A stretch of 64,000 nucleotides of DNA from Escherichia phage Phi1, in sequence record EF437941; one strand, written 5' to 3'. The notes under the pieces are model-generated. The model saw nothing but the letters and a program-made list of their open reading frames with translations, searched no databases and was not told the origin of the DNA. Numbering within the stretch: position 1 is the first letter of the stretch; every line of letters starts with the position of its first letter. Shown piece after piece: positions 12,147 through 58,420 of this stretch. The translations under genes were made by a program, and so were the position numbers.

Positions 12147-12624
12147 CTAAATCATTGCAATATTTTAGTGCCTTAGTTTGAAATTCTGCGCTGTTAAGTT
12201 CTTCATAACGGTCATAATCACCGTTTAATGCTGCCTTTCTTGCTTCTTGCTCTATCTGCATGTCAGACATGATAATACAGCGATCCCGCGCTTTCATCTT
12301 CTCAAGTTGTATAGACTCTTCTTTCTGCTTGCGCAATTCTTCTTGACGCTTCTTTTCTTCTTGTGCTTTCTCTTCCCGCGCTTCTTTGATTGCATCCTTG
12401 AACATCTGCGTTTGTGGTGCTAAACCAACTTTAACGCGATCCACGTCTCGACGTTCCATTTTAGAAATAAAGCATGATTCGATCTGATCATCACTTGCAT
12501 ATGCTGCTTTACATTCACGAAGCAAGAAAACCGGATCTGATTTAGCATTCATCATAGCTTCCATGTTGGCACAACCAGTAAGCATGAATGCAGCCGCAAG
12601 ACCAATCAGTTTAATCATTTTCAT
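12139..12624 (-). CDS. Putative lipoprotein
   Basis: Signal peptide with lipobox (AAAFMLTGC), then a charged coiled-coil-like region. Confidence 0.5.
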   Translation of the reverse strand: MKMIKLIGLAAAFMLTGCANMEAMMNAKSDPVFLLRECKAAYASDDQIESCFISKMERRDVDRVKVGLAPQTQMFKDAIKEAREEKAQEEKKRQEELRKQKEESIQLEKMKARDRCIIMSDMQIEQEARKAALNGDYDRYEELNSAEFQTKALKYCNDLAK

Positions 12625-13445
12625 TTAGTCACCTCACCGAAAATTGTAAATTGTCTACGATTCTCATCGCCGAAAGATTCTACTACGTCGTTTACCTTGA
12701 CGCAAGTCCCGCGCGGTAAAATTACTTCACATTCGCAAGGGTTCCATGCAATTGACCCAACAACAAAACCTTTATGATCTTTTACGTCAATTACCCATGA
12801 TACATTACAAGAATGTTGCATCTTTCCGGTCATGGATTCATATCGATTCTCACAATAAAGGCTAGTGCTATTTGAAAGCCAGCCTCCAAAGATGATCGGT
12901 GTCATGCTGGTCGATACAAAGTTTTTAAAGGTAAACTCCTTATCTTCAATAATACGCTCTATTGTCTGAATGTCAAGATGTTGACCGCGATAAAGAGTAC
13001 CGTTTAACTTTTCGGTTTTATCCATGACACAATCCATCAAATCAACAATCTCTGATATCTCATCGGTCATGTCTTCTTCCCCTAAGAGAGCACCATTTAC
13101 CCATTCGTATTGTTCAGACACATAATCACAGATTGCATTATATTCTGCTGGGGTTATGTTGTTATGTTTGTAATGTTTGAATACATTATCTCCAAAGTCT
13201 TCGGAGTGTACTTCATACATCACATTAATGATTTTCTTGACAAATCCATAATCTTGTGTCTCACGCTCAAGGAAGCGGATAACCTTCACATAATCATCAA
13301 AGTTAATCTGATCGCTGATCATCTCAGTGATCATGTAACCATTAATCCCCTCAATGTCATATGTTTCGATGTAATTATCCATACGTTCCATCATTGATTC
13401 GCGTGATTCTTCTGAAAGACGAAAATCCTGTAATTTCTTGAACAT
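12621..13445 (-). CDS. Alt-like ADP-ribosyltransferase paralog (catalytic domain only)
   Basis: Shares YRG ... FxFKNFVSTS ... IFGGW ... ECE(V/I)LPRG motifs with the C-terminus of the adjacent alt gene. Confidence 0.6.
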   Translation of the reverse strand: MFKKLQDFRLSEESRESMMERMDNYIETYDIEGINGYMITEMISDQINFDDYVKVIRFLERETQDYGFVKKIINVMYEVHSEDFGDNVFKHYKHNNITPAEYNAICDYVSEQYEWVNGALLGEEDMTDEISEIVDLMDCVMDKTEKLNGTLYRGQHLDIQTIERIIEDKEFTFKNFVSTSMTPIIFGGWLSNSTSLYCENRYESMTGKMQHSCNVSWVIDVKDHKGFVVGSIAWNPCECEVILPRGTCVKVNDVVESFGDENRRQFTIFGEVTK

Positions 13446-16732: not shown

Positions 16733-17030
16733 TATCTTTTAAGAACTCATCCCATGAATGGCGGATATTGTTCTTAATTCTCCAGATAAGCGCAGGGATT
16801 GAACGCTCTCCCATCTGGAAGTAAGGATCATATGATCCGTATGCCCAATATGCTACTACAATTCCACAATCAGCGCAATAATATTCTATTTCACTTGCTG
16901 GCGACCAAAGTCCATCAATATGATCGGTGATCCTGCTTTCGATGTTATGGCTATGGCAATCAGGGCAACGGATGCAATGACCTTGTTTATCGTAATTTGA
17001 CGTTAGCGAATACTTAAACAATCTCATCAT
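16698..17030 (-). CDS. Zinc-ribbon protein
   Basis: CxxC...CxxC pairs (CIRCPDC, CADCG); overlaps both neighbours, suggesting translational coupling. Confidence 0.45.
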   Translation of the reverse strand: MMRLFKYSLTSNYDKQGHCIRCPDCHSHNIESRITDHIDGLWSPASEIEYYCADCGIVVAYWAYGSYDPYFQMGERSIPALIWRIKNNIRHSWDEFLKDIDLRDDPFRRL

Positions 17031-17743
17031 AGATCCTTATTGGCTTCAAATACTGCCTTTGCGAATCCTCGCGGGGTAAGTGACCTGATAGTCTTTGTTC
17101 TGGTTCCTTTCCCGCCTAGCTTAGAATGCTGTTTACTGTACCCTTTATTAATATGCAACGGTTTCTTTTCTGGCATTATAAAGCCTTGTCCGGTCCATAA
17201 GCAAGTCTTTTTCGGGTACATATCACGGGCGGCAATATACTCAGGAAACGTAGGATGTTTATCATCTTCCGGCAAATAACCGCCATATTCCCACGGATGG
17301 AACATGTAATCAGGCTTACGCCACATACTAGAGATAACGCTTACAGGATTCTCTATCATGTAGGGAACTCCTAGCCATTCACCCAAATAAGCGGTTATTT
17401 TAGCTGCCCGTACATCATGAACTTGAATCAATGGTCCTTGTTCTCGTTTCTTTCGTTCAAAGTGTGCAGCGCCACTAACAGCTAAATTGGTGCACGGTGG
17501 GAATGCAAATATAATATCCGGTTTCCCCCATTCAAGGTCCATTGCTCTTTCCAGCCAGTTCAAATCAATCCAGGTGTTTACATAAGTAATGTTTGGATGT
17601 TCAAATCTGGTATTATACTTTTTGTATGTACCGTGGTCGGCGTCATCCGCATTAAAGCAGACTACCTTATGACCTGCTTTAGCCCATTCTAGCCCCATTA
17701 TCCCCGATCCGTCAAAGTTGCAGAATATTAATTTTTGTTTCAT
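17027..17743 (-). CDS. Minimal cytosine-C5 methyltransferase-like protein
   Basis: 238 aa with motif I-like FDGSG, motif IV-like FPPC and motif VI-like ENP in canonical order; no obvious target-recognition domain. Confidence 0.4.
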   Translation of the reverse strand: MKQKLIFCNFDGSGIMGLEWAKAGHKVVCFNADDADHGTYKKYNTRFEHPNITYVNTWIDLNWLERAMDLEWGKPDIIFAFPPCTNLAVSGAAHFERKKREQGPLIQVHDVRAAKITAYLGEWLGVPYMIENPVSVISSMWRKPDYMFHPWEYGGYLPEDDKHPTFPEYIAARDMYPKKTCLWTGQGFIMPEKKPLHINKGYSKQHSKLGGKGTRTKTIRSLTPRGFAKAVFEANKDL

Positions 17744-27466: not shown

Positions 27467-28344
27467 TAAAAGTCTCCGTAGTTAACCTGAAAACATTCTA
27501 CACCAATTGAGCGGTACATGTCAACCACTTGATCACGGTCATCTACTGCCAAAACAACATGATAACGCGGTGCAATTTCAGAGAAGAAAATCTCTTTCTT
27601 CACTTCATGATCAGGACGACGATCATTAGTTTCACGTTGAAAGTGATCACTAGGTTCAATACCCTGTTCACGCAACCATTGCAGAGTATCTTCTTCGCAA
27701 ACATCCTCACGTCCTGAGCATGTAATGATACGATAACCATTATCACGATACAGTTTAAGCATTTCGATCACTTGCGGACGCGGTTTATCTTCTTTGACCT
27801 TTGTCCAGTCAAACGGATGACGACCGCCCTTATCCGCTAATGTCCCATCAATATCAAAGATCACTGCCTTTGGCAGCATGGTATTCGGTTTGTATACTTC
27901 TTGACCCATATATTCCTGCATCAGATAAAATTGGTTGCGCAAATGAGAAAGTGGAATTGCTTTCTCTCCGCGATAGAAATTACGTTTCTTTAGTGTCTCA
28001 AATGATTCATTGAACACTTGTTCAGTATACACCGCGTTAAATTCTTTTGCAAGTTCTTTGTAGAATACACGATGTTTTTCTTTCAGGTTAGTATCAGAGA
28101 TAATGATACTTAATCCGCGTGATAGAGTCTCACGAGCAATCATTCTCTGAATAGTCTCTACCAGCTTTTCTTTTTCCTTAGTATACTTGTATTTCAAATG
28201 TGAGTCAACACCAAACAACATAAGACGAAGGTCATCACGATTCACATTACGATAATTACTAAACCGTTTACATGTCTCCATAGCCCATGTAGTTTTACCG
28301 GACCCAGAACAACCAACGGTTAAAATCACTTCACATTTCGGCAT
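27466..28344 (-). CDS. pseT: Polynucleotide kinase / 3-phosphatase
   Basis: N-terminal P-loop kinase (GCSGSGKTTWA) and C-terminal HAD phosphatase motif (VIFDIDGTL); start placed at the internal Met. Confidence 0.85.
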   Translation of the reverse strand: MPKCEVILTVGCSGSGKTTWAMETCKRFSNYRNVNRDDLRLMLFGVDSHLKYKYTKEKEKLVETIQRMIARETLSRGLSIIISDTNLKEKHRVFYKELAKEFNAVYTEQVFNESFETLKKRNFYRGEKAIPLSHLRNQFYLMQEYMGQEVYKPNTMLPKAVIFDIDGTLADKGGRHPFDWTKVKEDKPRPQVIEMLKLYRDNGYRIITCSGREDVCEEDTLQWLREQGIEPSDHFQRETNDRRPDHEVKKEIFFSEIAPRYHVVLAVDDRDQVVDMYRSIGVECFQVNYGDF

Positions 28345-28796
28345 TATTTCTCCTTCGGTTTGCACCGTTCCTCATTAAGTTCTTTTCGATAATAACACAT
28401 GATCAACTTACTTTCAAGTGTATATCTCTTAATATCCGCAAGCCAGACTCTGAATTTTTGGGAGTCCTCCCACGACATAGAAACTCTAGGTTTACCGTCT
28501 ATTGTATCCACTTTCAGGTCAATGTCAACTTTTTCTATTGGTGCTGGTAGTGGAGGATGTAATTTCGGTTCCTGTGAATAATGGTCCATTGTACACGAAG
28601 AAAGCGCAAATACAATAGGCACAGCGAAGACATGGATTATGGCGGTCTGAAAATTCTTATGTGCTTTCTTAAACATCCAGTGTATCACGAAAATTGAAAA
28701 CACCATCAGGATAATAATGCTTGCACCTATCCACAGATAATCAACCAGATTAAAATTGCTTATCTGCTCTTGTGTAGGCAATATTTCTATGCTCAT
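28344..28796 (-). CDS. Putative membrane protein
   Basis: Two predicted transmembrane helices; occupies the T4 alc region but is not called Alc. Confidence 0.45.
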   Translation of the reverse strand: MSIEILPTQEQISNFNLVDYLWIGASIIILMVFSIFVIHWMFKKAHKNFQTAIIHVFAVPIVFALSSCTMDHYSQEPKLHPPLPAPIEKVDIDLKVDTIDGKPRVSMSWEDSQKFRVWLADIKRYTLESKLIMCYYRKELNEERCKPKEK

Positions 28797-29167
28797 TTAG
28801 TAGCCTCCTTTAATTCTTCGGTAAACTCCTTAAATGAATCATTAAGCTGTTTCTCTACCAACTTGGGTTTTTGTGCTACTACGTAGCCTCGTGTAGCGTC
28901 TTTCATTGCTTTGTTTTGTTCTTCTGTAAACTTAGTTCTTATTCCGTACATCTCCTTTTGTAGTGAGTCTACGACCTTCATCTTTTCATCGGTCTTTTTC
29001 TTATACTCTGTAAATTCCTGATTCAGTCGATCTACCTCCTTTTTATTTTCCCACCACATATTGCCACCTACCCCCAGCAACGCAGATATGATAACAATGT
29101 ATATCAGCTTTGACATATTACCCCCAACGACAAAAGGCGGGGAACTAGCCCCGCTTATTATTACCAA
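28793..29167 (-). CDS. Putative membrane-anchored coiled-coil protein
   Basis: N-terminal hydrophobic helix followed by a charged coiled-coil region. Confidence 0.45.
   Translation of the reverse strand: MVIISGASSPPFVVGGNMSKLIYIVIISALLGVGGNMWWENKKEVDRLNQEFTEYKKKTDEKMKVVDSLQKEMYGIRTKFTEEQNKAMKDATRGYVVAQKPKLVEKQLNDSFKEFTEELKEATK
29130..29154 (-). terminator. Possible weak terminator after rnlA
   Basis: GCGGGGCTAGTTCCCCGC hairpin followed by CUUUUGU on the minus strand. Confidence 0.35.
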
Positions 29168-44622: not shown

Positions 44623-44658
44623 AATATATCATCCTCTTTGTTTCTATCAAGCCTTATT

Positions 44659-44666
44659 TATAAATA
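44659..44666 (+). promoter_or_regulatory. T4-type late promoter box TATAAATA upstream of gene 34
   Basis: Exact TATAAATA about 30 nt upstream of the gp34 ATG. Confidence 0.65.
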
Positions 44667-44694
44667 TGATCATACTATAAAAGGAGACCCAATA

Positions 44695-47600
44695 ATGGCA
44701 GATTTTTCTCAACATTTCAAGGCCACATTTGGCTTTGACGCTGGTAATGAAAAGGTCGTCAATGTAGCATTGGCTGATAAGAATGTCAACACCGATGCGG
44801 TCAACGTTGAATTTTTCAATTACCATAATGGTATTACTCAGTATGACACAACTCGCGGTTATGATCAATACGGAACTACAATCTATCAAAACCGTCCGTA
44901 TTATGCAAAAGAAGATATCACAAAGCCAGCAGGTGATTTTGACCCGACTAAATGGCAAGCACTGCGCACGGACCCACGTTGGGATTATATTGCAGCAACT
45001 TCCGGTGATACTCCTTTACAGTCTGGTGATTATATCGCAGCAGATGGTCAATTTGCAAACTTGACTTTCTCTATGCCAACTAAACCAGCAGAGGGAGACA
45101 CTATAACAGTAAAAGATATCGGTGGCAAGTGTGGTGTTAACGAATTATCGTTCTTGAGTTCAGGACATGAGTTTTACCATAACGGTAATGTGTATAACCG
45201 AAAATGGTATTGTACTACCCCGTATGCAATGAACTATTTCATCTTTGTTCGTAATCGTTGGCATGTTTATCAGACAGGAACAGAGCCACGCGGTGTGTAC
45301 GCACAGCCAGCGATTGATGCTATTCAAATGCAGAATGGTGATCAGGTATTTCGTCGTAGTTCATTGGGTAATATTACCTTAGTGCTTCCTAAGTTTGCCA
45401 ACAATGGCGACATGATCCAGACTACAGACCTTGACGGATTAACCGCAACCAACCACGTTACGGTTAAAGTTCATGAGCACGCAGAAGAACAATCAATTGG
45501 CACGTCCGGTCTAAAAGAGATTATCGGTAAGCGTAGCGGTCATGGTGTATTCATCTTTGACAAGACGGAAAACTTATGGCGTTTGTGGGATGGTGATCAG
45601 TCTGTTCGTCTTAAACCGATCATCGATGACACTCGCTTGCAACCTAATAGCTATGTTGCTGTATTTGGTGATCGTGATGTTACTCTGACGCTGCCGACCA
45701 ATGTCGAGCCGGGTGATCGTATTCAAGTTTCTATGCAGTATATGCACGGAAACCAGAATTGCCGTATTATCACCGCCACAGAGGATACAAAAATCCTTAT
45801 GTCGAAAAACATGGTTCAGTTGCCGAAGCGTAGCGAGTACCCATTCAATGGGACCGATACATGGAAGGAAGTGTCTGAATTGTCGTTCAATGCGGCTAGT
45901 GATTATGTACCTTATCTGGAGTTCTCTTATTCAGAAGGTGATGATGGTAAGAAACATTGGCTGGTAGCACACTCTCATCCGATCGTCGAACGAGTAGACC
46001 CTACTCGTAAAGAGCGTGTGGGTGTAATTGCACTGGCTACCCAAACTGAAACGAATAAAAACCATGAAGAGAATCCTAGCGACGAAGTTGCAGTAACACC
46101 AAAAATGCTGGCTAATAAAACCGCCAACGAAACTCGACGCGGTATTGCTCGCATTGCGACTCAAGCGGAAACGCATCAAGATACTGGTTCTAACTTCCTG
46201 GATGATGTTATCGTTACGCCTAAAAAGTTAAATGACTGTGTTGCTACCGAAGCCCGTCGTGGTGTGATGGAAATTGCAACCCAGCACGAAACCAATGAAG
46301 GTTTAGACGATACCCGCGCTATTACTCCTAAGAAATTAGAAGAACGTCGCGCTTCCGAAGATCTCGCTGGTATTGCTGAAATTGTTCAGGTTGGCGGTAG
46401 TGCTGCCGCTCGACGCGGCGAAGCTGGTACAGGGATCTATAACATCAATGACCATGCTAAAATTGTTACGCCAAAAAACATCAACGAAGTCAAGGCGACC
46501 GAAACTTCCCGTGGTGTTGGCTATCTGGCAACTGACGCGGAAGTGCAAGGGGCTACAGAATCAACCCCGCAAGATGCTTTACTAATCACGACTCGCACGC
46601 TAACGAAACGTACTGCTACCGAATCGCGCACTGGTATCGCTGAAATTGCAACTCAGGAAGAAACAAACTTAGGTCAAAGTGATAACCATATCATCACGCC
46701 TAAAAAGCTGCATACTCGCCGTGCAACGGAAACTTTACACGGTTTAGCAGAAATTGCAACTCAGCCGGAATTTGACGCAGGTCTTGACGATGCTCGCATT
46801 TCTACCCCATTGAAGATTAAAACCTTCTTTGAGAATGCACAGCGTTTGAAAGTAGATCCGACTCAGGGGCTTAACCTTACTGGTGATTTGTGGCAAGGTA
46901 TCATGATCCGCGGTCTGGACGCAACCGAAGACACAAAAGGTGTCGCTAAAGTTGCTACTACTCAGCTTACGGATGCTGGTCAAGATGATACTACAATCAT
47001 CACGCCTAAAAAGCTGCAAGGCAAAAAGGCCACAGAAGGTAAAGAAGGTATTATCCGAGTTGGTACTCAAGCCGAAACCGTGGCTGGTACACTGGCTAAT
47101 GTAGCAATTTCTCCGAAGAACTTCAAATATGTTGTTCAGACAGAGGATACATGGAAAGCAACCGAAGCGCGTCGTGGATTCTTGAAAGTTGCTACTCAGG
47201 AAAACTGTTTTGTTGGTGATAATCTGCAAGGTTCTACTCAAGAACTAGGAAACTACCAGCATGACGGAATTGCTGTTACCCCGAAAGGATTAAACTACGC
47301 ACTTGCTAATTTCTTACCTAAGATGGCAACCGCTCAGAATAGTTTGAAATTAGGTAACGTAGAGGCCGCTAAATGGGCGCGTAGAGACATTGACCAGACC
47401 ATAGAGAGCAATTACACGTTTAATAAAAACGTTAACGTGAAGGGCGATTTAGAGTGCTTAAAATCAGGTTCCTTTGAAACTCTGTATGTGACTAAGAACT
47501 CTACTGATGATCCGAGTAATGGTCATCTGGTGTTGGGTGAGCGTGGAGTTGACGGTCACACCGGAATTACTCTGCATGGCACAACCGCATCGGAAGGCAT

Positions 47601-48435
47601 GAAAAACTCCTGGTCTATTATCGTTGGTGGTACTGGAACGGCGCAAGCAGTTAATAGTGGCGCTATCGCTTTCGGTCAAATCAATGATGGTGGAGTCGTC
47701 GAGCATTACGCCTTTGCTATGGAACACACTGGCGACGCGACAGCATATAGAAACTTTATGGCAGGTCGTAACCTGTATGCAAAACAAGGCGGTTTATACA
47801 TTGTTGACCTGTCTAATCCGGCAATGACTCGTTCCTCAGATGGTATGCTGAATATCGGTCACGGTGGAAGTGTTAACATCAAGGCAGGTTATCAGAATCT
47901 GACTACAGAGATCGCCGGACAGAAATATCAGATCGTACACACAGGAAACGCTGACGAAGTTCTTAACCGTCAGTTTGTTAAGAATGCTGGCGATACAATG
48001 GTCGGTAAGCTGACTATGGATAATGCGCCTATTGTTTCTGTTAAGCATGAAGCTAGCGCGGCAACCGCCCCGGCAATCGGTAACATCGGTTTCTGGAATA
48101 TGCGAGTTACTACCCAGAACATCAAAGAAACTTATCCAGAGAAGAAAAACGGTACTCTGATGCAATGGGGTACTGACGCGGACGGGCTTACCCAGCTTTG
48201 GTCCCCTGATGGTACTCATAAACATTATATCCGTTCCGGTACTGGTGGTCAATGGACCGCATGGGGTGAAATTTACACCAAACAGAACAAACCTACCGCC
48301 CAGGAAATCGGGGCAGTAGTTGCAGAAGGTGGTTTAATGAACTCTATGACGGTGCGTGACTGGATCAAGGTTGGTAATGTTAAAATCATCGCCAATAATC
48401 TGACTCGTACCGTAGACTTTATCTGGGAAGACTAA
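44695..48435 (+). CDS. 34: Long tail fibre proximal subunit gp34
   Basis: Extensive similarity to T4 gp34 (ALADKNV, GVIALATQ, ETRRGIARIAT repeats); start at MADFSQ with AAGGAG RBS. Confidence 0.9.
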   Translation: MADFSQHFKATFGFDAGNEKVVNVALADKNVNTDAVNVEFFNYHNGITQYDTTRGYDQYGTTIYQNRPYYAKEDITKPAGDFDPTKWQALRTDPRWDYIAATSGDTPLQSGDYIAADGQFANLTFSMPTKPAEGDTITVKDIGGKCGVNELSFLSSGHEFYHNGNVYNRKWYCTTPYAMNYFIFVRNRWHVYQTGTEPRGVYAQPAIDAIQMQNGDQVFRRSSLGNITLVLPKFANNGDMIQTTDLDGLTATNHVTVKVHEHAEEQSIGTSGLKEIIGKRSGHGVFIFDKTENLWRLWDGDQSVRLKPIIDDTRLQPNSYVAVFGDRDVTLTLPTNVEPGDRIQVSMQYMHGNQNCRIITATEDTKILMSKNMVQLPKRSEYPFNGTDTWKEVSELSFNAASDYVPYLEFSYSEGDDGKKHWLVAHSHPIVERVDPTRKERVGVIALATQTETNKNHEENPSDEVAVTPKMLANKTANETRRGIARIATQAETHQDTGSNFLDDVIVTPKKLNDCVATEARRGVMEIATQHETNEGLDDTRAITPKKLEERRASEDLAGIAEIVQVGGSAAARRGEAGTGIYNINDHAKIVTPKNINEVKATETSRGVGYLATDAEVQGATESTPQDALLITTRTLTKRTATESRTGIAEIATQEETNLGQSDNHIITPKKLHTRRATETLHGLAEIATQPEFDAGLDDARISTPLKIKTFFENAQRLKVDPTQGLNLTGDLWQGIMIRGLDATEDTKGVAKVATTQLTDAGQDDTTIITPKKLQGKKATEGKEGIIRVGTQAETVAGTLANVAISPKNFKYVVQTEDTWKATEARRGFLKVATQENCFVGDNLQGSTQELGNYQHDGIAVTPKGLNYALANFLPKMATAQNSLKLGNVEAAKWARRDIDQTIESNYTFNKNVNVKGDLECLKSGSFETLYVTKNSTDDPSNGHLVLGERGVDGHTGITLHGTTASEGMKNSWSIIVGGTGTAQAVNSGAIAFGQINDGGVVEHYAFAMEHTGDATAYRNFMAGRNLYAKQGGLYIVDLSNPAMTRSSDGMLNIGHGGSVNIKAGYQNLTTEIAGQKYQIVHTGNADEVLNRQFVKNAGDTMVGKLTMDNAPIVSVKHEASAATAPAIGNIGFWNMRVTTQNIKETYPEKKNGTLMQWGTDADGLTQLWSPDGTHKHYIRSGTGGQWTAWGEIYTKQNKPTAQEIGAVVAEGGLMNSMTVRDWIKVGNVKIIANNLTRTVDFIWED

Positions 48436-48440
48436 TTAAA

Positions 48441-48456
48441 GGGGGCGAAAGCCCCC
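48441..48456 (+). promoter_or_regulatory. Intercistronic GNRA-type stem-loop (GGGGGC-GAAA-GCCCCC)
   Basis: Same hairpin as in the td-nrdA junction, between genes 34 and 35; no U-tract. Confidence 0.4.
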
Positions 48457-48469
48457 ATATGGGGTTATT

Positions 48470-49609
48470 ATGACACAAGAGATAGAATTACGCAACACTG
48501 GAATTAGGTTTGCGCATTTCGACGAAGACTCTGCGACATTTACCAGCATTTCAGAAAATAACTCTGTGATGTATAAGCTGGAAGTGCGCGGATCTAATGC
48601 GGATTCTACCAAACCAGCAAGAATTAGATTTAATGGAGTGGAGATTGTTGGCACTGGCTATGAAAATGGCCTAAATTTTAAAGTTCTTACTCCAACTGGA
48701 CAATTACACGAAGAAAAGGTATTCTATGGTCGCGGTGCTGTTTTGGCAATGCGTGATTATCTTTCTTTGCTGAAAGGTGACTATATCATTGCGATGGCAA
48801 CGCATGGAGAATTGTTTGCAGATCCGATAAGTGATGATGTATTTTCTAAGCTGGGATCTGTATCATTCCCGAATCACATTTTGTTACAGCAAATGCCTCG
48901 TGTATCATATGCAGCAATTTATTCTACTAAAATGGGTAAAATTGTGTGCGAAGGTATGCAAGCGACCCACGGGGAAGGACAAGATTCATCTATACAAATT
49001 GAGAAAGTCTATGATACTATAGATGATCTTGCTATAACAGGAACACCACAACGATTTTTAGATTATCCGGTTGAGTATGTGAGCGAAGATGCCGAACATT
49101 TCGAGCTAATACAATGGCCTCACGATGAGATCAGCGCCCCACTTGAGGATTTTAACATAAAGGCAGGTGACAAACTATCAATATCCTTTGAATTGTTCCG
49201 TGATAGTGCCGCAGCCGCAGCCAACGTAACAGCGCGTTTCTATCACAACTACTTCACCGATGGACAATATCAAACTGGTGTTCGATACAATGCCAGCAAA
49301 AAAGACCAATGGGAAAAGTTTGAAGCCGTCTATACCGTACCGGAAGGAGTTGATAGTGTAGTAACTGGTTGTATCAGATATCCAACCAACTCCAATGAAG
49401 GTATTGTTAAAATTAGAAACATACTAATAACGCCGATCAGTGGAGTCGTCAAAACTACTGGTCCTACTTCATTTGGTGTTAATGGTGTTAGAACAACTCA
49501 TATTCAGGATAACGGTGATTTTACTAACCCTGTAATGAGTCTTCTTAAACTACCCAGAGATAATAAACACATCACATCCAACAACTTTAAAGAGTTTGAT
49601 GTTGATTAA
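48470..49609 (+). CDS. 35: Long tail fibre hinge protein gp35
   Basis: 379 aa (T4 gp35 is 372 aa); conserved position. Confidence 0.8.
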   Translation: MTQEIELRNTGIRFAHFDEDSATFTSISENNSVMYKLEVRGSNADSTKPARIRFNGVEIVGTGYENGLNFKVLTPTGQLHEEKVFYGRGAVLAMRDYLSLLKGDYIIAMATHGELFADPISDDVFSKLGSVSFPNHILLQQMPRVSYAAIYSTKMGKIVCEGMQATHGEGQDSSIQIEKVYDTIDDLAITGTPQRFLDYPVEYVSEDAEHFELIQWPHDEISAPLEDFNIKAGDKLSISFELFRDSAAAAANVTARFYHNYFTDGQYQTGVRYNASKKDQWEKFEAVYTVPEGVDSVVTGCIRYPTNSNEGIVKIRNILITPISGVVKTTGPTSFGVNGVRTTHIQDNGDFTNPVMSLLKLPRDNKHITSNNFKEFDVD

Positions 49610-49630
49610 CATTTTTTACAAGCCGATCCA

Positions 49631-49660
49631 TGTGGTCGGCTTTATTTTTATACAGTTGGT
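49631..49660 (+). terminator. Rho-independent terminator after gene 35
   Basis: AGCCGATCCATGTGGTCGGCT hairpin followed by TTTATTTTTA. Confidence 0.7.
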
Positions 49661-49770
49661 TAAAATGTAACCAAAACGAAGAAAGATCTTTAGAATAATA
49701 GAAAATTTGTTTCGGTTAAAAATTAGTCAGTGCCTACGGCACGTCGCGAAGCGATATTTTGTTAACATTC

Positions 49771-49778
49771 TATAAATA
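49771..49778 (+). promoter_or_regulatory. T4-type late promoter box TATAAATA upstream of gene 36
   Basis: Exact TATAAATA about 34 nt upstream of the gp36 ATG. Confidence 0.65.
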
Positions 49779-49811
49779 CTCGGAACTATAACTAATTTTT
49801 GAGGTTACTTT

Positions 49812-51302
49812 ATGGCAGATTTGAAATATGGATCTACTGTAGGTGGATCTCCCATTTGGACGCAAGGAAACTTGACGATCCAGCCAGCGGGGGATCAGCT
49901 TTTCTACAAAGGTCATAAAATCTATACCGCTTTTGATAGACCTTCGGCTACCGATTTTGATGCTGTTAGTGCATCCGAAGGTGGCACATTTCAAAAGCAA
50001 GTTCATTTCGAGGAAGGTTTAAGCGTAGGTAGCGCATCGGCTGGAGAAACTAAAAAGAATGGTATCTTTAAAGGTCAGAGTGACGCTGCTAATTTTGACG
50101 GTGTAAGCTGGGGTTTGCATTCATGGAAGTCAATCGGCTTTGTTAATGCCCGTGATGGCGTTATAATGGCGTATATTGACACCACAACGGGCGAATTTAA
50201 GTCTAAAGGGACTATCGAAGGGACAACCATTAAAGACACAGGTCAACGCGTCTATAGCCCTGTTAATAAACCAACGAATAATGATTTAGATTTGGTGTCT
50301 CGTCGCGGTGATACCCTCACAGGAACATATAATTTAAACACCGTCACTGTTAAACTATCGGTTGATTCGAAATTAATTGCAAGGGAACGTGATTTAATTA
50401 ATTTTGATGCGACTAAGATCTATTATGGTAACGTTCTTGATACGTTGGTATTCCGAAGTAAAGATGAGCCTACCATTTTTGTTAATGGCAAAGAAGGTCG
50501 TTTTTATCACACCAACAATAAACCAACTAAAGCCGATGTTGGACTAGGCAATGTCACCAATGATGCACAGGTTAAACGTGCTGGTGATATTATGGAAGGT
50601 AACTTGCAAGCGCCTAGAATGTTGGCGACAAACGATCCTGCTGGTCCGAATGAATTGGTTCGTTTGAGCTACTTTGAGAGAAAATCAATGGTAGCAAATC
50701 CAACCATCATTGGAAACGTTGATTGGAACACTCTTATTAATCGCGGTATCTATCGTGTGGAAAATGCTGGGTCGGGTACTAATAAACCGTCTGATAGCTA
50801 TTATAACGGCGTTTTGATGGTATATCGCCCAGAAGATGCGGTCGGTACTCGTCGAATTGTTCAGGTGTATTATCCTGAATCTATTGACCATCCGATGTGC
50901 TGGCGTTCTTGTTCTAATGAATCATGGACTGCATGGAACTATGTAGATCACCGTAAATTAGCCGATATTCGCTATGTTAACGTAACTGGCGATACCATGA
51001 CAGGACCGTTAACTGTTCCGGCGGCAAACGGTGTTAGAACAGCTAAAACTAACTATAATGGGGATAATTGCTATGCAGCCTTAAGTGGTGCTGATGGCAC
51101 TGCTATGATTCACCGTATCAGTGATATTAAAGGGACCGAAAAGCTGGGGATCACCCACGACTCAAAGGTCGTGTTTTTCCGTTCTAGAAACAATACTCAA
51201 ACCGTGGACCGCTATCAGCTTTATCATGAAGGTAATAAACCTACTCCGGCTGATGTTGGCGCAGTTCCACTTAATGCGGTGATTGATTTTGGTACTTTCT
51301 AA
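49812..51302 (+). CDS. 36: Long tail fibre distal connector gp36 (expanded)
   Basis: N-terminus MADLKYGSTVGGSPIWTQGN matches T4 gp36, but 496 aa against ~221 aa in T4. Confidence 0.8.
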   Translation: MADLKYGSTVGGSPIWTQGNLTIQPAGDQLFYKGHKIYTAFDRPSATDFDAVSASEGGTFQKQVHFEEGLSVGSASAGETKKNGIFKGQSDAANFDGVSWGLHSWKSIGFVNARDGVIMAYIDTTTGEFKSKGTIEGTTIKDTGQRVYSPVNKPTNNDLDLVSRRGDTLTGTYNLNTVTVKLSVDSKLIARERDLINFDATKIYYGNVLDTLVFRSKDEPTIFVNGKEGRFYHTNNKPTKADVGLGNVTNDAQVKRAGDIMEGNLQAPRMLATNDPAGPNELVRLSYFERKSMVANPTIIGNVDWNTLINRGIYRVENAGSGTNKPSDSYYNGVLMVYRPEDAVGTRRIVQVYYPESIDHPMCWRSCSNESWTAWNYVDHRKLADIRYVNVTGDTMTGPLTVPAANGVRTAKTNYNGDNCYAALSGADGTAMIHRISDIKGTEKLGITHDSKVVFFRSRNNTQTVDRYQLYHEGNKPTPADVGAVPLNAVIDFGTF

Positions 51303-51306: not shown

Positions 51307-51331
51307 AGCGGGGATTATCTCCCCGCTTTTC
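51307..51331 (+). terminator. Rho-independent terminator after gene 36
   Basis: AGCGGGGATTATCTCCCCGCT hairpin followed by TTTTCT. Confidence 0.55.
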
Positions 51332-51372: not shown

Positions 51373-54315
51373 ATGGCAGATTTAAGCAGAATCCAATTTA
51401 AACGCACTAGCACTAAAGGTCGTAAACCTGATGCTAGTACGATGAATCCGGGGGAATTGGCAATCAACCTTGCGGATCAATATCTTCTTACTAAAAATGA
51501 TTCCGGTGCTATTATCAATTTAAGTTGTCCTCCGGTTTATGACCGCGATGTTACAATGGCGGGTAAGGTTAAAGGTAATAATTATATCTTAAGTAAAACC
51601 GCCAACTATCTGGAAGATCAGACAGCGCGAGATCTTAATTACTTTGGTGCTTTCCGAACTAATGGACAAGATGGTCTTTTAGATCTAACTCTTAATGTTC
51701 CTCATTCTGCTGGCGTTAATCATGGTCGAGGATTTACTTTCCGTTATGCGACTGGCGGATCTCGTGTTGAAACCTATGGGTATAATGCACAGGGACAAAA
51801 AGCATTTAGCTATAAAATGTATCATGAAGGTGATAAACCTACCCCATCGGAATTGAACGTTTATAGCAAACAAGAAGTTGACCGTATGTTTGTTAAAACC
51901 GTTAAACTTGCTACAGTTCCTGTTGATATCGTTGACGGTTATTTTAAATTAGCAACTGCAATGATTCCGCAAAACGGTCGTAGTGTATTTTTCCGTATTC
52001 ATGGTGGTAACGGATATAACGTTACTGCATACGATCAAGTTGATATTGTAGAAATTGTTATTCGCAGTGGAAATAATCGTCCTAAAGGTGTTAACGTTAT
52101 TGCATACCGCCGAAATACAAACAAAGCATTTGATGTTTTGGCTGTTAATACTTCGGGTGATAACTATGATATCTACGTGAAATATCAGCGTTACACTGAT
52201 AACGTTATTGTTGAATTTGGTAAAAGTGTTGATGTTGATCTGGTGGTTCATGACGTTCCAGACTTTGTTGTTGATCGTCCTGTTGGCGATAATGTTATTG
52301 GCGGTCGCGCGGTAACTCTTTTCAACACCGAAAACAAACGAGGTGTGTTGAGTTTTGACGATAACACACAAAATAGTTATGATATTGTTCACTTGAGTAA
52401 TGATAGGGGTACTGGACGGAAATATATTCGTAAATTCCGTAGCAACTATAACGAAATGATCTGGCATGAGACGGTTCAAGGTTCTACTTATCGACTCGCC
52501 ACGGGTAGTACAGATGCCCAGGAGATTCTATCCGTTGAATCTAGTAGCTCTATTGCTGGGACTCATAAAGGTAATATTCTTTCTGGTCGAATGATGTTGG
52601 GTGGTGGTAGTAATGTTATTACCTTGCGGCGTCCTGCTGGTCAATCCAACCATATTACGTTTCAAGATAATCGGACTGGATCTATTACCCGTCAAGGGTG
52701 GATCGGTTATGGTAATGCTGATACTAACGTTTTTGAATGGTATAGTGATGTGGGTGGTAGTTCTATTCGTCACCACATCGACGGACAGATCGAATTTCAG
52801 ACAGGTAACACAAAACGAGTTTATACTAACGCTCAATTCATCTCAATGAATAGCGACGCCTACCGAATGCTCTACGGTAATTACGGTGCATTCTGGCGTA
52901 ATGACGGCGTTAAAGTTTATCTTCTTTCTACTGCCGAAAATGATAAATTGGGCGGGTGGAATGCCTATCGTCCATTCATTTATGATTTAACTTCCGGTAA
53001 CGTTCAATTAGGCGGTGATGGTAACGAAGATGCATTAACGTTAGAACGTGCTTCTCGTGCCGCTCGATTTAGTAATGACGTTTACATTAAGAAAGGGCAT
53101 TTGACTTTCGACGCTGGGCGATTAAATTCCCGCGATTATTTCCGGTTTAACCATTGGGGTGATAGCAATAACGCGCGTGATAACATCTTACAGCTTGACG
53201 ATAGCATGGGTGCACACTTCACCACTGAACGTACTTTAGCAACTGGTGCAATTAAAACTAAATTCTTCGGTAATTTGGAATCTGCTGGTCAAATTAAATG
53301 GGGTAAAGGGACCGCCACATCTACGTTTACTCTACGTGTATGGGGTAGCGATAGCCGTAAACAAATATTTGAATGCGGCGATGAAAGCGGGTGGCATTGG
53401 TATACCCAACGCGCGGGCGGTCCGGATACTTCTGCAATTGAGTTTGCCATCAACGGTACTCTTAGGCCGCAAGCAATTACCACTGGCGGTAATATTATTT
53501 TGGGCGGTTCTGATATTGATTTTCGTCGCACTGGTAATAAGCATATCTGGTTTAGAGATCCGAACGGTTTAGAGTTAGGCTTGATGTACTGCGATGATGC
53601 TGGTGTTATTCGCTTCCGTGGTCAGAAACAAGCTCAGGCGTGGAAATTTGCAGATAAAATGATCCAGTTGGAATCTGGCACTGTATCCGGTGGCGGTAAT
53701 GGCCTGATTCGTGGTGAAGTTGCTGGCGGTAGTTGGGCTAGCTGGCGTGACCGTCCTGCTGGTCTTATGGTTGGGTGTCCTCAATCCGTTGACTCGGCAC
53801 ATAACGTATGGAAAGCGACGCATTGGGGTAAATATCACATTGCAGCAATGGGTGTACATGTTCCTAGTGGTACTATTACCAATGCTTTAGCTCGCCTAAA
53901 CGTTCATGACGCCAACTTTGACTTTAGCGCCTCCGGTGATATGACGATAGGTCGTAACGGTTCGTTTAACGATGTTTACATTCGTTCTGATGCTCGCCTT
54001 AAAATCAATAAGGAAGAGTATAAAGAGAATGCCACAGATAAAGTTAATCGCTTGACGGTATACACCTATGACAAGGTTAAATCTTTAACCGACCGTACTG
54101 TCATTGCTCATGAAGTTGGTATTATTGCTCAGGATCTTGAAAAAGAATTGCCGGAAGCCGTAACAACTTCTAAGATCGGCGACCCAGATAATCCAGAAGA
54201 GATCTTAACAATTTCTAACTCTGCTGTCAACGCTCTTTTAATTAAGGCGTTTCAGGAAATGAGCGAAGAATTGAAAGCCGTTAAAGCTGAACTAGCGGAA
54301 CTTAAAAAGAATTAA
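51373..54315 (+). CDS. 37: Long tail fibre distal subunit gp37 with C-terminal intramolecular-chaperone-like domain
   Basis: N-terminus IQFKRTS...PGELAINL matches T4 gp37; C-terminal ~110 aa (SDARLKINKEEYKE...AVKAELAELKKN) resembles self-cleaving intramolecular chaperone domains of other tail fibres. Confidence 0.85.
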   Translation: MADLSRIQFKRTSTKGRKPDASTMNPGELAINLADQYLLTKNDSGAIINLSCPPVYDRDVTMAGKVKGNNYILSKTANYLEDQTARDLNYFGAFRTNGQDGLLDLTLNVPHSAGVNHGRGFTFRYATGGSRVETYGYNAQGQKAFSYKMYHEGDKPTPSELNVYSKQEVDRMFVKTVKLATVPVDIVDGYFKLATAMIPQNGRSVFFRIHGGNGYNVTAYDQVDIVEIVIRSGNNRPKGVNVIAYRRNTNKAFDVLAVNTSGDNYDIYVKYQRYTDNVIVEFGKSVDVDLVVHDVPDFVVDRPVGDNVIGGRAVTLFNTENKRGVLSFDDNTQNSYDIVHLSNDRGTGRKYIRKFRSNYNEMIWHETVQGSTYRLATGSTDAQEILSVESSSSIAGTHKGNILSGRMMLGGGSNVITLRRPAGQSNHITFQDNRTGSITRQGWIGYGNADTNVFEWYSDVGGSSIRHHIDGQIEFQTGNTKRVYTNAQFISMNSDAYRMLYGNYGAFWRNDGVKVYLLSTAENDKLGGWNAYRPFIYDLTSGNVQLGGDGNEDALTLERASRAARFSNDVYIKKGHLTFDAGRLNSRDYFRFNHWGDSNNARDNILQLDDSMGAHFTTERTLATGAIKTKFFGNLESAGQIKWGKGTATSTFTLRVWGSDSRKQIFECGDESGWHWYTQRAGGPDTSAIEFAINGTLRPQAITTGGNIILGGSDIDFRRTGNKHIWFRDPNGLELGLMYCDDAGVIRFRGQKQAQAWKFADKMIQLESGTVSGGGNGLIRGEVAGGSWASWRDRPAGLMVGCPQSVDSAHNVWKATHWGKYHIAAMGVHVPSGTITNALARLNVHDANFDFSASGDMTIGRNGSFNDVYIRSDARLKINKEEYKENATDKVNRLTVYTYDKVKSLTDRTVIAHEVGIIAQDLEKELPEAVTTSKIGDPDNPEEILTISNSAVNALLIKAFQEMSEELKAVKAELAELKKN

Positions 54316-54356
54316 GGAAAACTCCCAGGGAAGGGAACTACTAAGGAGAAACGGCT

Positions 54357-54596
54357 ATGGTCTATAATATCGTCATTGGTGCTTTGTCTAATTTCGGAAT
54401 GAAATTATTGTCAAAGTTAATTAGTGAAAAGATGCTCACTAAAATTTTCTTCTATTGCGCTCGTCGTCTTGCGGCTTATACCAATACGCCAATTGATGAT
54501 CGTTTTGTGGAAGAACTTTATAAGGAGTTTAATAAAAATCAGTCAGAAGATAGTAACGAGCAAGATAAACCTAGTGATAGTCAACTACCTAAATAA
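54357..54596 (+). CDS. Small membrane-associated protein at the gp38 position
   Basis: 79 aa with hydrophobic N-terminal helix and acidic C-terminus; no resemblance to gp38. Confidence 0.4.
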   Translation: MVYNIVIGALSNFGMKLLSKLISEKMLTKIFFYCARRLAAYTNTPIDDRFVEELYKEFNKNQSEDSNEQDKPSDSQLPK

Positions 54597-54629: not shown

Positions 54630-55286
54630 ATGCAAGTTTCTGAAAAAGGGAAAGACTTTGCTATCTCAAATGTCCTGCGCGCTATTTTCACAACTAAAAG
54701 CACGGAGTTGCTCGTACTTCGTGTTTTTGCTGCCGTCGTGTTGTCCATATTGGCATTTGTCGTTTATAGTAAAAACGAGTTATTTGCGCTTTATAAAGAG
54801 ACTCGTTATGAGACTTATGCTCACATTCTCCAGGTAGAGAAAGACCGCAATTTTGATAATGCAGCACAGGAGCAGTTACAGATAGTTCATGTGTCGGCTG
54901 ATGCCGATTTTTCTGCTGTTTTTAGTTTTCGTCCGAAAAACCTAAACTATTTTGTTGATTTGGTGGCATATGAAGGAAAGCTACCGCACACAATCGATGA
55001 AAAAAATTTAGGCGGATTCCCTATCAATAAAACGAGTGAAGAATATCGTAGGCATCTTTTAGGTAAATCCTATTTTACCGATAAAGATTTCCAGTATATT
55101 CCATCAAGAGAAAAGAAATTAGAGAATATCGATATAGGTTTCATGTATTCTTGTCCTATATTCAATCTCGATAATGTCTATTCTGGTAGTATCGCCATTT
55201 CATGGAAGAATAAACCGGATATTGACATTGAGAATTTAGATACTCTTTGCAATCAATCTGCCAGAATCCTCGGAAGGATTAGATAA
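54630..55286 (+). CDS. t: Holin
   Basis: 218 aa closely matching T4 holin T (QLQIVH.S.DADFSAV.SFRPKNLNYFVD..AYEGKLP, MYSCP.FNLDN). Confidence 0.9.
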   Translation: MQVSEKGKDFAISNVLRAIFTTKSTELLVLRVFAAVVLSILAFVVYSKNELFALYKETRYETYAHILQVEKDRNFDNAAQEQLQIVHVSADADFSAVFSFRPKNLNYFVDLVAYEGKLPHTIDEKNLGGFPINKTSEEYRRHLLGKSYFTDKDFQYIPSREKKLENIDIGFMYSCPIFNLDNVYSGSIAISWKNKPDIDIENLDTLCNQSARILGRIR

Positions 55287-55291: not shown

Positions 55292-55325
55292 AGGGGAAGC
55301 CTTTCGGCCTCCCCTTCTTTTTATT
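55292..55325 (+). terminator. Rho-independent terminator after t
   Basis: AGGGGAAGCC-TTTC-GGCCTCCCCT hairpin followed by TCTTTTTATT. Confidence 0.65.
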
Positions 55326-55569
55326 GACGCATAGAAGCCCCTGAATCACATTTTGACGCTGTATGATGAAAACAGGTAGCGTACCAGTCATCGGCTTGTT
55401 TGTCTTCGTCAGAAAACGCGTAATTTCGTTGTATGCCGTTTTCTACTTTGACCAGTGCAATGGCTGTTTCTGGAAGATCGATCAATCGTACAAAATCACC
55501 ATCTTCCCACTCTACACGAGCAATATCATAACCCATCTCAAAATAAACAATCGCTTGTTCTAATTTCAT
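55321..55569 (-). CDS. Small hypothetical protein
   Basis: 82 aa ORF; no recognisable similarity to AsiA. Confidence 0.4.
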   Translation of the reverse strand: MKLEQAIVYFEMGYDIARVEWEDGDFVRLIDLPETAIALVKVENGIQRNYAFSDEDKQADDWYATCFHHTASKCDSGASMRQ

Positions 55570-57274: not shown

Positions 57275-57355
57275 GTCAACAACTTATTTTCGGTTGTACT
57301 TGTCAACAACTTATTTTCGGTTGTACTTGTCAACAACTTATTTTCGGTTGTACTT
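57275..57355. repeat. Perfect 3 x 27-bp direct tandem repeat
   Basis: GTCAACAACTTATTTTCGGTTGTACTT three times; on the minus strand each unit is AAGTACAACCGAAAATAAGTTGTTGAC. Confidence 0.9.
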
Positions 57356-57619: not shown

Positions 57620-58420
57620 TTAACCCTTCTTATATTCGCAAACATATTGAGTACCATAATCATAGCTAATGCGACCTTTCTCGATTACTTCAAAGCGGAT
57701 TTCATCGTTTTCCCCTACCCACATTTTGTACTCGTTGAAGTATCCTGCTACATCCGGTTTGCTCATACCAACAACCATATTTTTATATTGTTTGCTGTGT
57801 GTCAGATTTGATTTAAACACTTCGCGCTCATCAACATATACGAAAGAAGACAATTCACCTTCGGTCATGGTCATTTTCAGCTTGCCGCCCTTGTTGCCAT
57901 AAGTAGAGTTGCCATACAATGGATCTTTGCGGCTGTCTGTTTCAATACCATCAATGATTTTCCATGTAAATTTTGCAATGCACTGATAAGTGATAGATCC
58001 AGAGATTTTCTCTTCTTTCTTCTGTTCTTCCACCACTTTTGCTTCGTGTTTCGGTTGTTCTTCTTCAACCTTCACAGAAGTCTCTGAATCGCTTTCTGAC
58101 GCGGTTTCTTCTTTAGGTAATACATTCATCAAGTTTTGGATTTGAGCGTTGTATACAGCCTCCAGTGGCTGAATCTGCCCGATATTGATCATTGTATCAC
58201 GAACAGTTTTATTCCAGTTGCGTTGCTCTTGTTTAAGAGACGGATCAATCTTAACAGCCTTAACATATACCTCATGAAGTTTAGAATCAAGTGCTGAGAT
58301 TGACTCATTAGCACAAATAAACTTCTCTGATTTGGTAGTAGCTTTAGCGCAATCAAAGGACGCAGCATTAGCACCGAAAGTAGTAGCAGAAAGAACGATA
58401 GCAGCGATAATGTTTTTCAT
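57620..58420 (-). CDS. Secreted DUF1311/LprI-like protein
   Basis: Signal peptide (MKNIIAAIVLSATTFGANA), then FDCAKA...E.FIC...LD..L...Y...EQR.W pattern, an acidic linker and a C-terminal domain. Confidence 0.45.
   Translation of the reverse strand: MKNIIAAIVLSATTFGANAASFDCAKATTKSEKFICANESISALDSKLHEVYVKAVKIDPSLKQEQRNWNKTVRDTMINIGQIQPLEAVYNAQIQNLMNVLPKEETASESDSETSVKVEEEQPKHEAKVVEEQKKEEKISGSITYQCIAKFTWKIIDGIETDSRKDPLYGNSTYGNKGGKLKMTMTEGELSSFVYVDEREVFKSNLTHSKQYKNMVVGMSKPDVAGYFNEYKMWVGENDEIRFEVIEKGRISYDYGTQYVCEYKKG

Follow-up and report, generated by a model that had tools for sequence, protein, structure and literature searches.

In phage RB49, gene 38 (g38) was displaced to a locus far away, and a small ORF fills its slot (Trojet et al. 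2011, PMC3157838). The gp37 of this phage cleaves itself, after which monomeric gp38 attaches, and the host-range mutations E230K/Y231S map to gp38 (PMC9569957). In phage S16, the cleavage of gp37 exposes the surface on which gp38 docks, and the motif DVYIR^SD.RLK is shared by the gp37 of the fPS phages and the gp37 described here (PMC7917993). Regarding the small ORF, protein P18 of phage PM2 helps the disintegration of the outer membrane (PMC6356626), and homologues of P18 were reported in RB49 and Felix O1 (PMC1950889). The displaced g38 and the self-cleaving gp37 of RB49-like phages are already known and published. The locus described here is very probably a standard RB49-like (Krischvirus) fibre-tip system, which belongs to the class of T2, T6 and S16 and not to that of T4, with a displaced g38 and with the small protein Dc5.

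The tail-fibre module and its relatives

The window, by which we mean the whole 64-kb stretch of DNA that was analysed, makes up the final 64 kb of the genome of an RB49-like phage (Krischvirus). Overall, RB49 140850-164018 is collinear with it, GEC-3S matches its first 24 kb at 98.9% identity, and the stretch from g37 to t shows 95% nucleotide identity with Ec_Makalu_003. All ORFs listed in a preliminary description of this DNA were found in the window at the same coordinates. Genes 34-36 are collinear with those of RB49, with 98-99.8% amino acid identity for gp35 and gp36, and holin t is 100% identical to RB49 t at the amino acid level. The features are collected in Table 1. The hairpin between g36 and g37 has the sequence GGGGATTATCTCCCC and is followed by a T-run. 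The late-promoter type motif TATAAATA is present 5' of g34 and g36, and none was found directly 5' of g37, dc5 or t. Globally, its occurrences in the window are at chance level.

Table 1. Coordinates of the features in the 64-kb window
Feature	Position	Strand	Evidence or remark
gp34	44638-48435	+	PHROG long tail fiber proximal connector / hinge connector matches in the gp34-gp36 module
gp35	48470-49609	+	ORF; long-tail-fibre module 44638..51302
gp36, 496 aa	49812-51302	+	ORF; long-tail-fibre module
Putative terminator-like hairpin between g36 and g37	51310..51322	+	Consensus scan
gp37 precursor, distal long-tail-fibre subunit, 980 aa	51373..54315	+	phrog_1699, E 3e-197
T4/T6-like N-terminal region of gp37, aa 1-116	51373..51720	+	tblastn
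Mosaic, highly variable gp37 mid-shaft, aa 301-500	52273..52872	+	Comparison with RB49
Gp34_trimer-like domain in gp37 shaft, aa 473-537	52789..52983	+	Pfam PF21446, E 1.6e-25
Conserved tip at the distal end of mature gp37, about aa 778-871, last residues ...NDVYIR871	53704..53985	+	Alignment
Autocleavage / catalytic motif S872-D-A-R-L-K877	53986..54003	+	Predicted cut R871/S872
Intramolecular chaperone (Peptidase_S74 / CIMCD), gp37 aa 872-980	53986..54315	+	Pfam PF13884
Dc5-like ORF, 79 aa, putative lysis accessory factor	54357..54596	+	phrog_402, E 5.6e-20
Holin t	54630..55286	+	Pfam Phage_holin_T, E 4.5e-61
Spanin pair, pseT.2 / pseT.3 homologues	28344..29167	-	phrog_812, E 1.5e-32; phrog_739, E 1.9e-26

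The family matched by gp37 is labelled 'long tail fiber protein distal subunit', and the protein shares 78% overall amino acid identity with RB49 gp37. Its N-terminus, which had been called T4-like, proved to be so: tblastn gave 58% identity to T4-type gp37 for aa 1-50 and 41.5% to T6 gp37 for aa 1-116. This region presumably joins gp36. In the mid-shaft, amino acid identity to RB49 falls to 34-60% per 50-aa block over aa 301-500, while the flanking blocks reach 94-98%, and nucleotide similarity to RB49 breaks off at 52515-52854. The shaft domain listed in Table 1 gave phmmer matches to the T4 gp34 structures 4UXE/5NXF. No Pfam match to gp37_C or gp37_trimer was found in gp37.

Dc5, the protein in the gene 38 slot

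Directly 5' of holin t, in the slot that g38 occupies in T-even phages, a 79-aa ORF and not gp38 had been described. This ORF was confirmed, and its product is 96% identical to RB49 Dc5. Dc5 gave no Pfam or NCBIfam match, the Pfam copy used being one without the PF26925 model; in precomputed annotation, its homologues carry the label PF26925 'Phage_PM2_Gpl'. In a comparison with PM2 gp l, hhalign gave a probability of 83.8% (E 7.9e-6) and covered 41 of the 51 P18 residues. When 24 members from tailed phages were made into an HMM, with PM2 left out, PM2 P18 scored 22.7 bits against it (E 2e-6). By these profile comparisons, Dc5 belongs to the P18/gp l family of phage PM2.

The AF2 model of Dc5 consists of three helices at low confidence (pLDDT 63). 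The ORF had also been taken to be membrane-associated, a view that hydropathy did not support: the best 19-residue Kyte-Doolittle mean was 1.19 and the best 18-residue Eisenberg value was 0.51, values at which we see no clear transmembrane helix. On the same grounds, Dc5 was rejected as a candidate for a transmembrane holin or antiholin. A replacement of the spanins was ruled out by the canonical spanins in the window, whose two families are both labelled 'Rz-like spanin' and which are annotated as pseT.2/pseT.3 in RB49. Since canonical spanins are already present, a role of Dc5 in lysis would be auxiliary, and because holin t lies immediately downstream, Dc5 would most likely act late. We give about even chances to the reading that Dc5 acts late in lysis, as an accessory factor at the outer membrane.

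A more specific version is possible but rather doubtful, namely that Dc5, expressed from the tail-fibre operon's end together with holin t, is a working outer-membrane disruptor of the PM2 P18 type beside the canonical spanins. If this is true, Dc5 would provide a second, spanin-independent route of outer-membrane breach in Krischvirus, Felix O1-like, Vibrio and other tailed phages. No experiments on the Dc5/P18 family in tailed phages were found in the literature searched, and the role of this PM2-P18-like protein beside holin t is the loose end of research value at this locus.

The gene neighbourhoods of the homologues bear on an alternative, in which Dc5 is not a lysis protein but functionally replaces gp38, as a small chaperone or tip factor of the tail fibre. 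Beside its position in the g38 slot directly 3' of g37, this reading is favoured by the Felix O1-like phages, where the homologue lies directly 3' of a T4-gp37-type tail-fibre gene (gp37_trimer + gp37_C), and by 7-11, A24 and LAh_8, where it adjoins tail adaptor and fibre genes. In these three phages and in Felixounavirus, the genes around the homologues are tail or structural genes and not those of lysis. Nevertheless, the Vibrio phages carry the homologue directly after the endolysin gene and far from the fibre genes, Dc5 shows no similarity to either type of gp38, and its family is that of the lysis factor P18 of PM2, a tailless phage. Furthermore, gp37 carries its own chaperone and the relatives have gp38 elsewhere. 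This alternative thus appears very unlikely. A remnant of T4 gp38 was also considered, as the two proteins share the heptapeptide EELYKEF and occupy the same slot. The hhalign probability between them was 2%, and we therefore attribute the shared heptapeptide to chance.

Location of gp38, and the tip and chaperone of gp37

The preliminary description had stated that gp38 is absent. For the slot between g37 and t and for the window as a whole, this was correct. When RB49 gp38 and T4 gp38 were searched against all frames of the window, the best tblastn match was at E 0.17 for the T2 type and E 0.62 for the T4 type, phmmer gave none for either, and what was returned was glycine-rich noise at most. 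Two unannotated ORFs of ~240 aa, at 1621-2346 and 17027-17743, were considered as candidates; their sequences were read and are not gp38. For the genome, judged from the relatives, the statement would not hold. RB49 encodes gp38, a GP38 + Gp38_N protein (PF05268 + PF21721; Pfam GP38 E 7e-72), at 45367-46143 on the minus strand. In RB49 and every close relative checked, the gene of this T2-type adhesin is ~105 kb from g37, or ~58 kb when measured the other way round the circular map. Full-length homologues with 81-100% identity occupy the same distant position in all 26 Krischvirus entries that were listed both among the best 30 nucleotide matches and in the search for gp38 in relatives, and the closest relatives with a distant gp38 include Ec_Makalu_003, ECD7, GEC-3S, JSE and others. 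The lack of gp38 in the window is therefore most likely an effect of the window edge, and the gp38 gene of this phage would lie outside it.

The receptor-binding tip had been placed just upstream of the cleavage site, an assignment that we do not retain. In S16 and RB49, cleavage exposes a docking surface for gp38 and gp38 is the adhesin. Because the RB49 literature describes a gp37 that cleaves itself and a gp38 monomer that docks and sets the host range, the tip of gp37 is most likely a docking surface for gp38 and not a receptor-binding site. The tip contains the conserved block GLIRG..GG.W..WRDR.AGL..DC...S..SA..WKATHWG..HIAAMGVH, and its aa 801-871 are 84-96% identical to RB49, compared with values down to 34% in the mid-shaft. 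From a receptor-binding site, one would not expect a conserved tip on a variable shaft. RB32 gp37 shares 63.8% identity with aa 802-964, and DVYIR, the final strand before the cut, is identical in the fPS phages, which are Tequatrovirus phages that use gp38. The pre-cleavage tip resembles the S16 gp37 tip weakly, the significant part of the match to 6F45_A being the chaperone domain.

One could suppose instead that the phage has no gp38, and that gp37 is self-chaperoned and binds the receptor directly through the tip upstream of the cut, like T5 pb1 or K1F endosialidase. This would agree with the failure to find either type of gp38 in any part of the 64-kb window. There are S74-bearing fibres that themselves bind receptors, T5-like fibres are 35-40% identical to the last 180 aa of gp37, and the pre-chaperone region of gp37 resembles part of phage Mu fibre protein S. 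However, a full-length gp38 at the distant locus in every sequenced relative checked, the change of RB49 host range by mutations in gp38, and the conservation of the tip between phages with varying shafts leave this supposition with very little probability.

The C-terminal segment of ~110 aa had been described as chaperone-like. It comprises 109 aa from S872 (SDARLKINKEEYKE) to N980, at the extreme C-terminus of the distal subunit (aa 872-980 of 980), and is a true Peptidase_S74 intramolecular chaperone. The full PF13884 profile (1-58) matched aa 872-931 with 45.1 bits against a cut-off of 22 (E 1.2e-11). Ser872 and Lys877, five residues apart at the start of the domain (S113 and K118 in the numbering of the aligned fragment), are invariant in the alignment of 22 homologues. 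The motif aligns with DLNVS^SDRRIKK of S16 and DVYIR^SDGRLKI of fPS, and when every reading-frame segment of 40 aa or more in the window is considered, SD.R.K occurs a single time. The chaperone also gave profile matches to S16 gp37 (6F45_A, E 4.4e-12) and to the MyRF ICA domain (7DC3, E 7.6e-7). In the AF2 monomer model (overall pLDDT 71), the chaperone part reached a pLDDT of 75-94 per 10-residue block, and residues 190-220 of the fragment (gp37 aa 949-979) form a long helix. In the fold typical of such chaperones, beta elements precede a long helix at the C-terminus, which makes a trimeric coiled coil. The best Foldseek matches of the predicted fold were 7DC3, 3GW6 and 3GUD, which are the chaperone structures of MyRF ICA, endosialidase and GA-1.

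The chaperone would be cleaved off after trimerisation, as judged from its homologues. That it is a degenerate remnant which stays attached to gp37 uncleaved might be read from the moderate overall confidence of the monomer model, but is extremely improbable given the invariant dyad and surrounding motif, a Pfam score of twice the gathering threshold, 96-97% identity to the RB49 domain, and the cleavage of the S16 homologue with the same motif.

Taken as an RB49-like fibre-tip system, the locus would work as follows. gp37 would first be made as a 980-aa precursor, whose S74 domain (872-980) would be the template on which the distal fibre trimerises and would afterwards cut itself off at R871/S872 through the Ser872/Lys877 dyad, as is suggested by the homologues. 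The new C-terminal tip of gp37 (about aa 778-871) would serve as the socket for one monomer of the gp38 adhesin, and gp38 (GP38 + Gp38_N) would bear the receptor-binding loops, to go by the S16 structure and RB49 genetics. In Krischvirus, g38 has moved those ~105 kb from g37 (~58 kb the short way) and would hence lie outside the 64-kb window, and the vacated slot holds Dc5, for which a late accessory role in lysis, at the outer membrane, is the likeliest. The preliminary description had suggested a strategy different from that of T4. It does differ from T4 itself, but it is not new, being the predominant strategy of the T2/T6/S16 type. As a consequence for annotation, RB49-like gp37 should not be labelled as the receptor-binding protein, and a g38 that does not adjoin g37 does not mean that the adhesin is absent. 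Host-range prediction for RB49-like phages in therapeutic use depends on the distant g38.

Comparison with known systems

In T4, whose fibre system comprises gp37, the gp38 chaperone and gp57A, the N-terminus of gp37 is homologous, and the fibre module is the same overall and likewise precedes holin t. By contrast, T4 gp37 ends in a gp37_C needle tip without an S74 domain, and its gp38 is a Tfa-like chaperone that is unrelated to the adhesin and has no homologue in the window. The chaperones of endosialidase, T5 pb1 and GA-1 (MEROPS S74; 3GW6, 3GUD) and the MyRF ICA domain (7DC3) belong to the same Pfam family and share the Ser-Lys motif and the predicted fold. In these proteins, however, the C-terminus itself serves as the functional tip once matured, whereas the one described here is expected to bear a separate adhesin.

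As with Dc5, the gene of P18 (gp l) in the corticovirus PM2 has a holin-like gene as its neighbour and is located where a late operon ends. Dc5 is longer than P18, as it has an acidic tail and an additional helix at the N-terminus. PM2 is without an endolysin and spanin system (PMC1950889), while the phage of Dc5 has both, and the outer-membrane disruption role of P18 at lysis is known in PM2 only (PMC1950889, PMC6356626).

In Salmonella phage S16 (PDB 6F45) as well as T2 and T6, gp37 likewise ends in an S74 chaperone with S-D-x-R-x-K, and its partner, as in RB49, is an adhesin of the GP38 family that has a Gp38_N domain for attachment. The cleavage-then-docking mechanism proposed for S16 would be the same here, although the S16 tip differs in sequence from the gp37 tip described here upstream of the last five residues. 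In S16, T2 and T6, g38 is located immediately 3' of g37, while the corresponding slot in the window is taken by Dc5, the known RB49 exception. This difference concerns gene order and not mechanism.

The RB49 (Krischvirus) locus has the same gene order and sizes, g34-g35-g36-g37-dc5-t, with g38 displaced. Its gp35, gp36, Dc5 and t are 96-100% identical to those described here, and the tip and chaperone of gp37 are 84-97% identical. The difference from RB49 lies in the mid-shaft of gp37 (aa about 100-500), which is another mosaic variant with 34-82% identity per 50-aa block.

Chaperone domain and gene context of gp37

Pfam, the motif, the invariant residues and the matches to phage S16 gp37 identify the C-terminus of gp37, the distal long-tail-fibre subunit precursor, as an intramolecular chaperone. 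Since the predicted fold agrees with these, the preliminary description was correct in calling this end chaperone-like. An HMM search placed the whole Pfam Peptidase_S74 profile ("chaperone of endosialidase") on aa 872-931 at 45.1 bits (gathering score 22). The C-terminal segment comprises 109 aa and begins at S872 with SDARLK, a motif type that occurs once across all frames of the window. Across 22 aligned homologues, V868, R871, S872, D873, R875, L876 and K877 are invariant. A Ser-Lys dyad is the defining feature of MEROPS S74, and here it consists of S872 and K877. Both the last 280 aa (phmmer, E 1.5e-4) and a profile search with the C-terminal region (E 4.4e-12) matched 6F45_A, the C-terminal part of Salmonella phage S16 gp37 that has been crystallised; the profile search matched the MyRF ICA domain 7DC3 and a further fibre, 8JOV, as well. 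The AlphaFold2 model of aa 760-980 had a mean pLDDT of 71, with blocks of 75-94 in the chaperone part, and its top Foldseek matches in the PDB were 7DC3 (E 6.6e-5), the endosialidase intramolecular chaperone 3GW6 and the GA-1 chaperone 3GUD. Drexler, Riede and Henning reportedly showed in the 1980s that T2 gp37 loses about 120 residues from its C-terminus by proteolysis. Around the predicted cleavage position (^), the window gp37 reads DVYIR^SDARLKI. Tequatrovirus fPS phages have DVYIR^SDGRLKI at their cleavage position, and in S16 gp38 docks on a surface that the cleavage of gp37 lays bare (PMC7917993).

The gene order is gp34, gp35, gp36, gp37, Dc5 (the 79-aa ORF) and holin t, and the last three are exactly as the preliminary description had stated. 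It had also called the gp37 N-terminus T4-like, which is borne out by 58% identity to T4-type gp37 over aa 1-50 and 41.5% to T6 gp37 over aa 1-116. The window gp36 is more than twice as long as T4 gp36 (221 aa) and has only a sub-threshold Phage_T4_gp36 match; this length is a genus trait, common to RB49.

Coordinates of features in the window and in related records
Feature	Record	Coordinates	Strand	Description
ADPrib_exo_Tox domain protein	window	12621-13445	-	274 aa
Alt homologue	window	13524-15575	-	683 aa
Canonical spanins	window	28344-29167
gp36	window	49812-51302	+	496 aa
gp37	window	51373-54315		980 aa
gp37 mid-shaft	window	52273-52872	+	aa 301-500
Dc5 (PF26925 family)	window	54357-54596	+	79 aa
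Holin t	window	54630-55286		Pfam Phage_holin_T, E 4.5e-61
Tad2-like ORF	window	55321-55569	-	82 aa; 27.9 bits, cut-off 25, E 3.4e-6
Tandem repeat	window	57275-57355		perfect, 27 bp x 3.0 copies, GTCAACAACTTATTTTCGGTTGTACTT
LprI-like ORF	window	57620-58420	-	266 aa; weak match, 25.3 bits, cut-off 22
Tail-fibre region	Felix O1 (L003)	2564-5552		fibre with gp37_trimer + gp37_C tip, and the ORFs after it
PF26925 family member	Felix O1 (L003)	4992-5186
PF26925 family member	L004	4004-4213
PF26925 family member	L014	9922-10077
g38	RB49	45367-46143	-	annotated "g38; similar to T2 and RB69 gp38 adhesin"
gp38 homologue	Ec_Makalu_003	45283-46059		full length, position equivalent to RB49 g38

Position of g38 and the role of the gp37 tip

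In nucleotides, the g37-t region shares 95% identity with Escherichia phage Ec_Makalu_003, 94.6% with ECD7 and 88.7% with RB49; the three are Krischvirus phages. The first 24 kb of the window are 98.9% identical to GEC-3S. Because of this identity and because RB49 140850-164018, the right end of the RB49 record, is collinear with window 40510-64000, the window is the final ~64 kb of an RB49-like genome.

The statement that gp38 is absent holds for the g37-t slot and for the window as a whole: tblastn against the window gave a best E of 0.17 with RB49 gp38 and 0.62 with T4 gp38, and phmmer found neither type among its 606 stop-to-stop segments. It probably does not extend to the genome. The RB49 g38 product is a complete gp38 with both the GP38 (E 7e-72) and the Gp38_N (E 6e-18) domain. 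As a tblastn query it recovered full-length counterparts, placed correspondingly to RB49 g38, in Ec_Makalu_003, ECD7, GEC-3S, JSE, Makalu_001/002, E26, Sf20 and others. Full-length gp38 was present in each of the 26 Krischvirus rows common to the top 30 g37-t nucleotide matches and the gp38 tblastn matches. In relatives, g38 lies ~105 kb from g37, or ~58 kb by the short way of the circular map, both beyond the reach of the window. Judged from these positions, the absence of gp38 probably reflects the position of the window's edge, and a loss of gp38 in this phage is not supported. For RB49, Trojet et al. (2011, PMC3157838) had already described g38 as moved to a distant locus, its old place being taken by a small ORF. 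In RB49, the gp38 monomer attaches once the gp37 C-terminal chaperone domain is removed, and host-range mutants carry E230K/Y231S in gp38 (Efimov et al., PMC9569957).

A receptor-binding site just upstream of the cleavage site had also been proposed. The tip (aa 801-871) is 84-96% identical to RB49 and the chaperone domain 96-97%, against 34% in the mid-shaft (aa 401-450); a receptor tip on gp37 is not supported. Because the tip is conserved, it would fit better as the surface on which the conserved Gp38_N domain docks than as a specificity determinant. RB32 gp37 is 64% identical to the last 180 aa of window gp37. The region before the tip resembles part of phage Mu fibre protein S in a profile search, showing its modular origin. 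We also observed a mosaic hot spot at aa 301-500, where identity to RB49 is 34-60% between flanks of 94-98% and megablast matches of several relatives are interrupted.

Dc5, the small ORF in the former g38 slot

Dc5 is 96% identical to its RB49 counterpart and matches phrog_402, a family without assigned function. About 390 phage records carry a homologue, distributed over Krischvirus, Felixounavirus, Erwinia, Vibrio, Aeromonas and 7-11/A24-like phages. In a large protein collection the homologues are labelled PF26925, named Phage_PM2_Gpl in neighbour tables. The 51-aa PM2 gp l (P18) was aligned with the Dc5 alignment by hhalign over 41 columns (probability 83.8%, E 7.9e-6), and 24 family members from tailed phages went into an HMM that scored PM2 gp l at 22.7 bits. 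Krupovic and Bamford noted in 2007 that Felix O1 and RB49 have homologues of P18 (PMC1950889), and in PM2 P18 contributes to the disintegration of the outer membrane (PMC6356626); we found no experimental work on the family in tailed phages in the literature searched. The family, with the invariant core F..E..FF..A..T.T..DD.F, was confined to phage records and contigs of phage size.

Dc5 is not a gp38 substitute, and the heptapeptide EELYKEF that it shares with T4 gp38 is due to chance. Our best guess, put at roughly even odds, is a lysis-accessory protein, because of the P18 family matches and the gene context: 33 bp separate Dc5 from holin t downstream of it, the intervals of the g37-dc5-t series contain no terminator-like site, and in Vibrio phages the homologue is directly 3' of the endolysin gene. 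Weighed against this, the homologue stands amid structural genes in A24, 7-11 and LAh_8 and after a T4-type tail-fibre gene in Felix O1, canonical spanins are also in the window, and hydropathy gave no clear transmembrane helix. The structure model, of low confidence, has three helices and an acidic tail.

Other features of the window were also noted. The ORF directly past holin t matches a Thoeris anti-defence 2 domain and is possibly an anti-Thoeris sponge in a Krischvirus. The tandem repeat lies between or overlaps small minus-strand ORFs. The LprI-like (lysozyme inhibitor) ORF has an apparent N-terminal signal-peptide segment by reading of its sequence, and may encode a secreted phage protein interfering with lysozyme. 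The Alt gene adjoins the ADPrib_exo_Tox gene, placing two ADP-ribosyltransferase genes side by side.

Comparison with known fibre systems

The Felix O1 fibre carries a T4-type tip, which in T4 requires the gp38 chaperone; 3' of it lie only two genes, the Dc5 homologue and an ORF of 121 aa whose match to a septum-formation (DivIC) family is weak and sub-threshold. A 303-aa protein from an E. coli contig (P0036) fuses, in a single ORF, the Gp38_N / GP38 N-terminal part to the gp37 tip and S74 chaperone domain; it could have arisen by recombination between g38 and g37 within glycine-rich sequence, or be a chimera of the assembly.

Overall, the sequence observation in the preliminary description was accurate and its interpretation half correct: there is indeed a chaperone domain, but a loss of gp38 and a receptor tip on gp37 are not supported. 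A self-cleaving gp37 domain with a displaced g38 is already described for RB49-like phages. The arrangement does differ from that of T4 itself, but it is not novel, being the common strategy of T2, T6 and S16.
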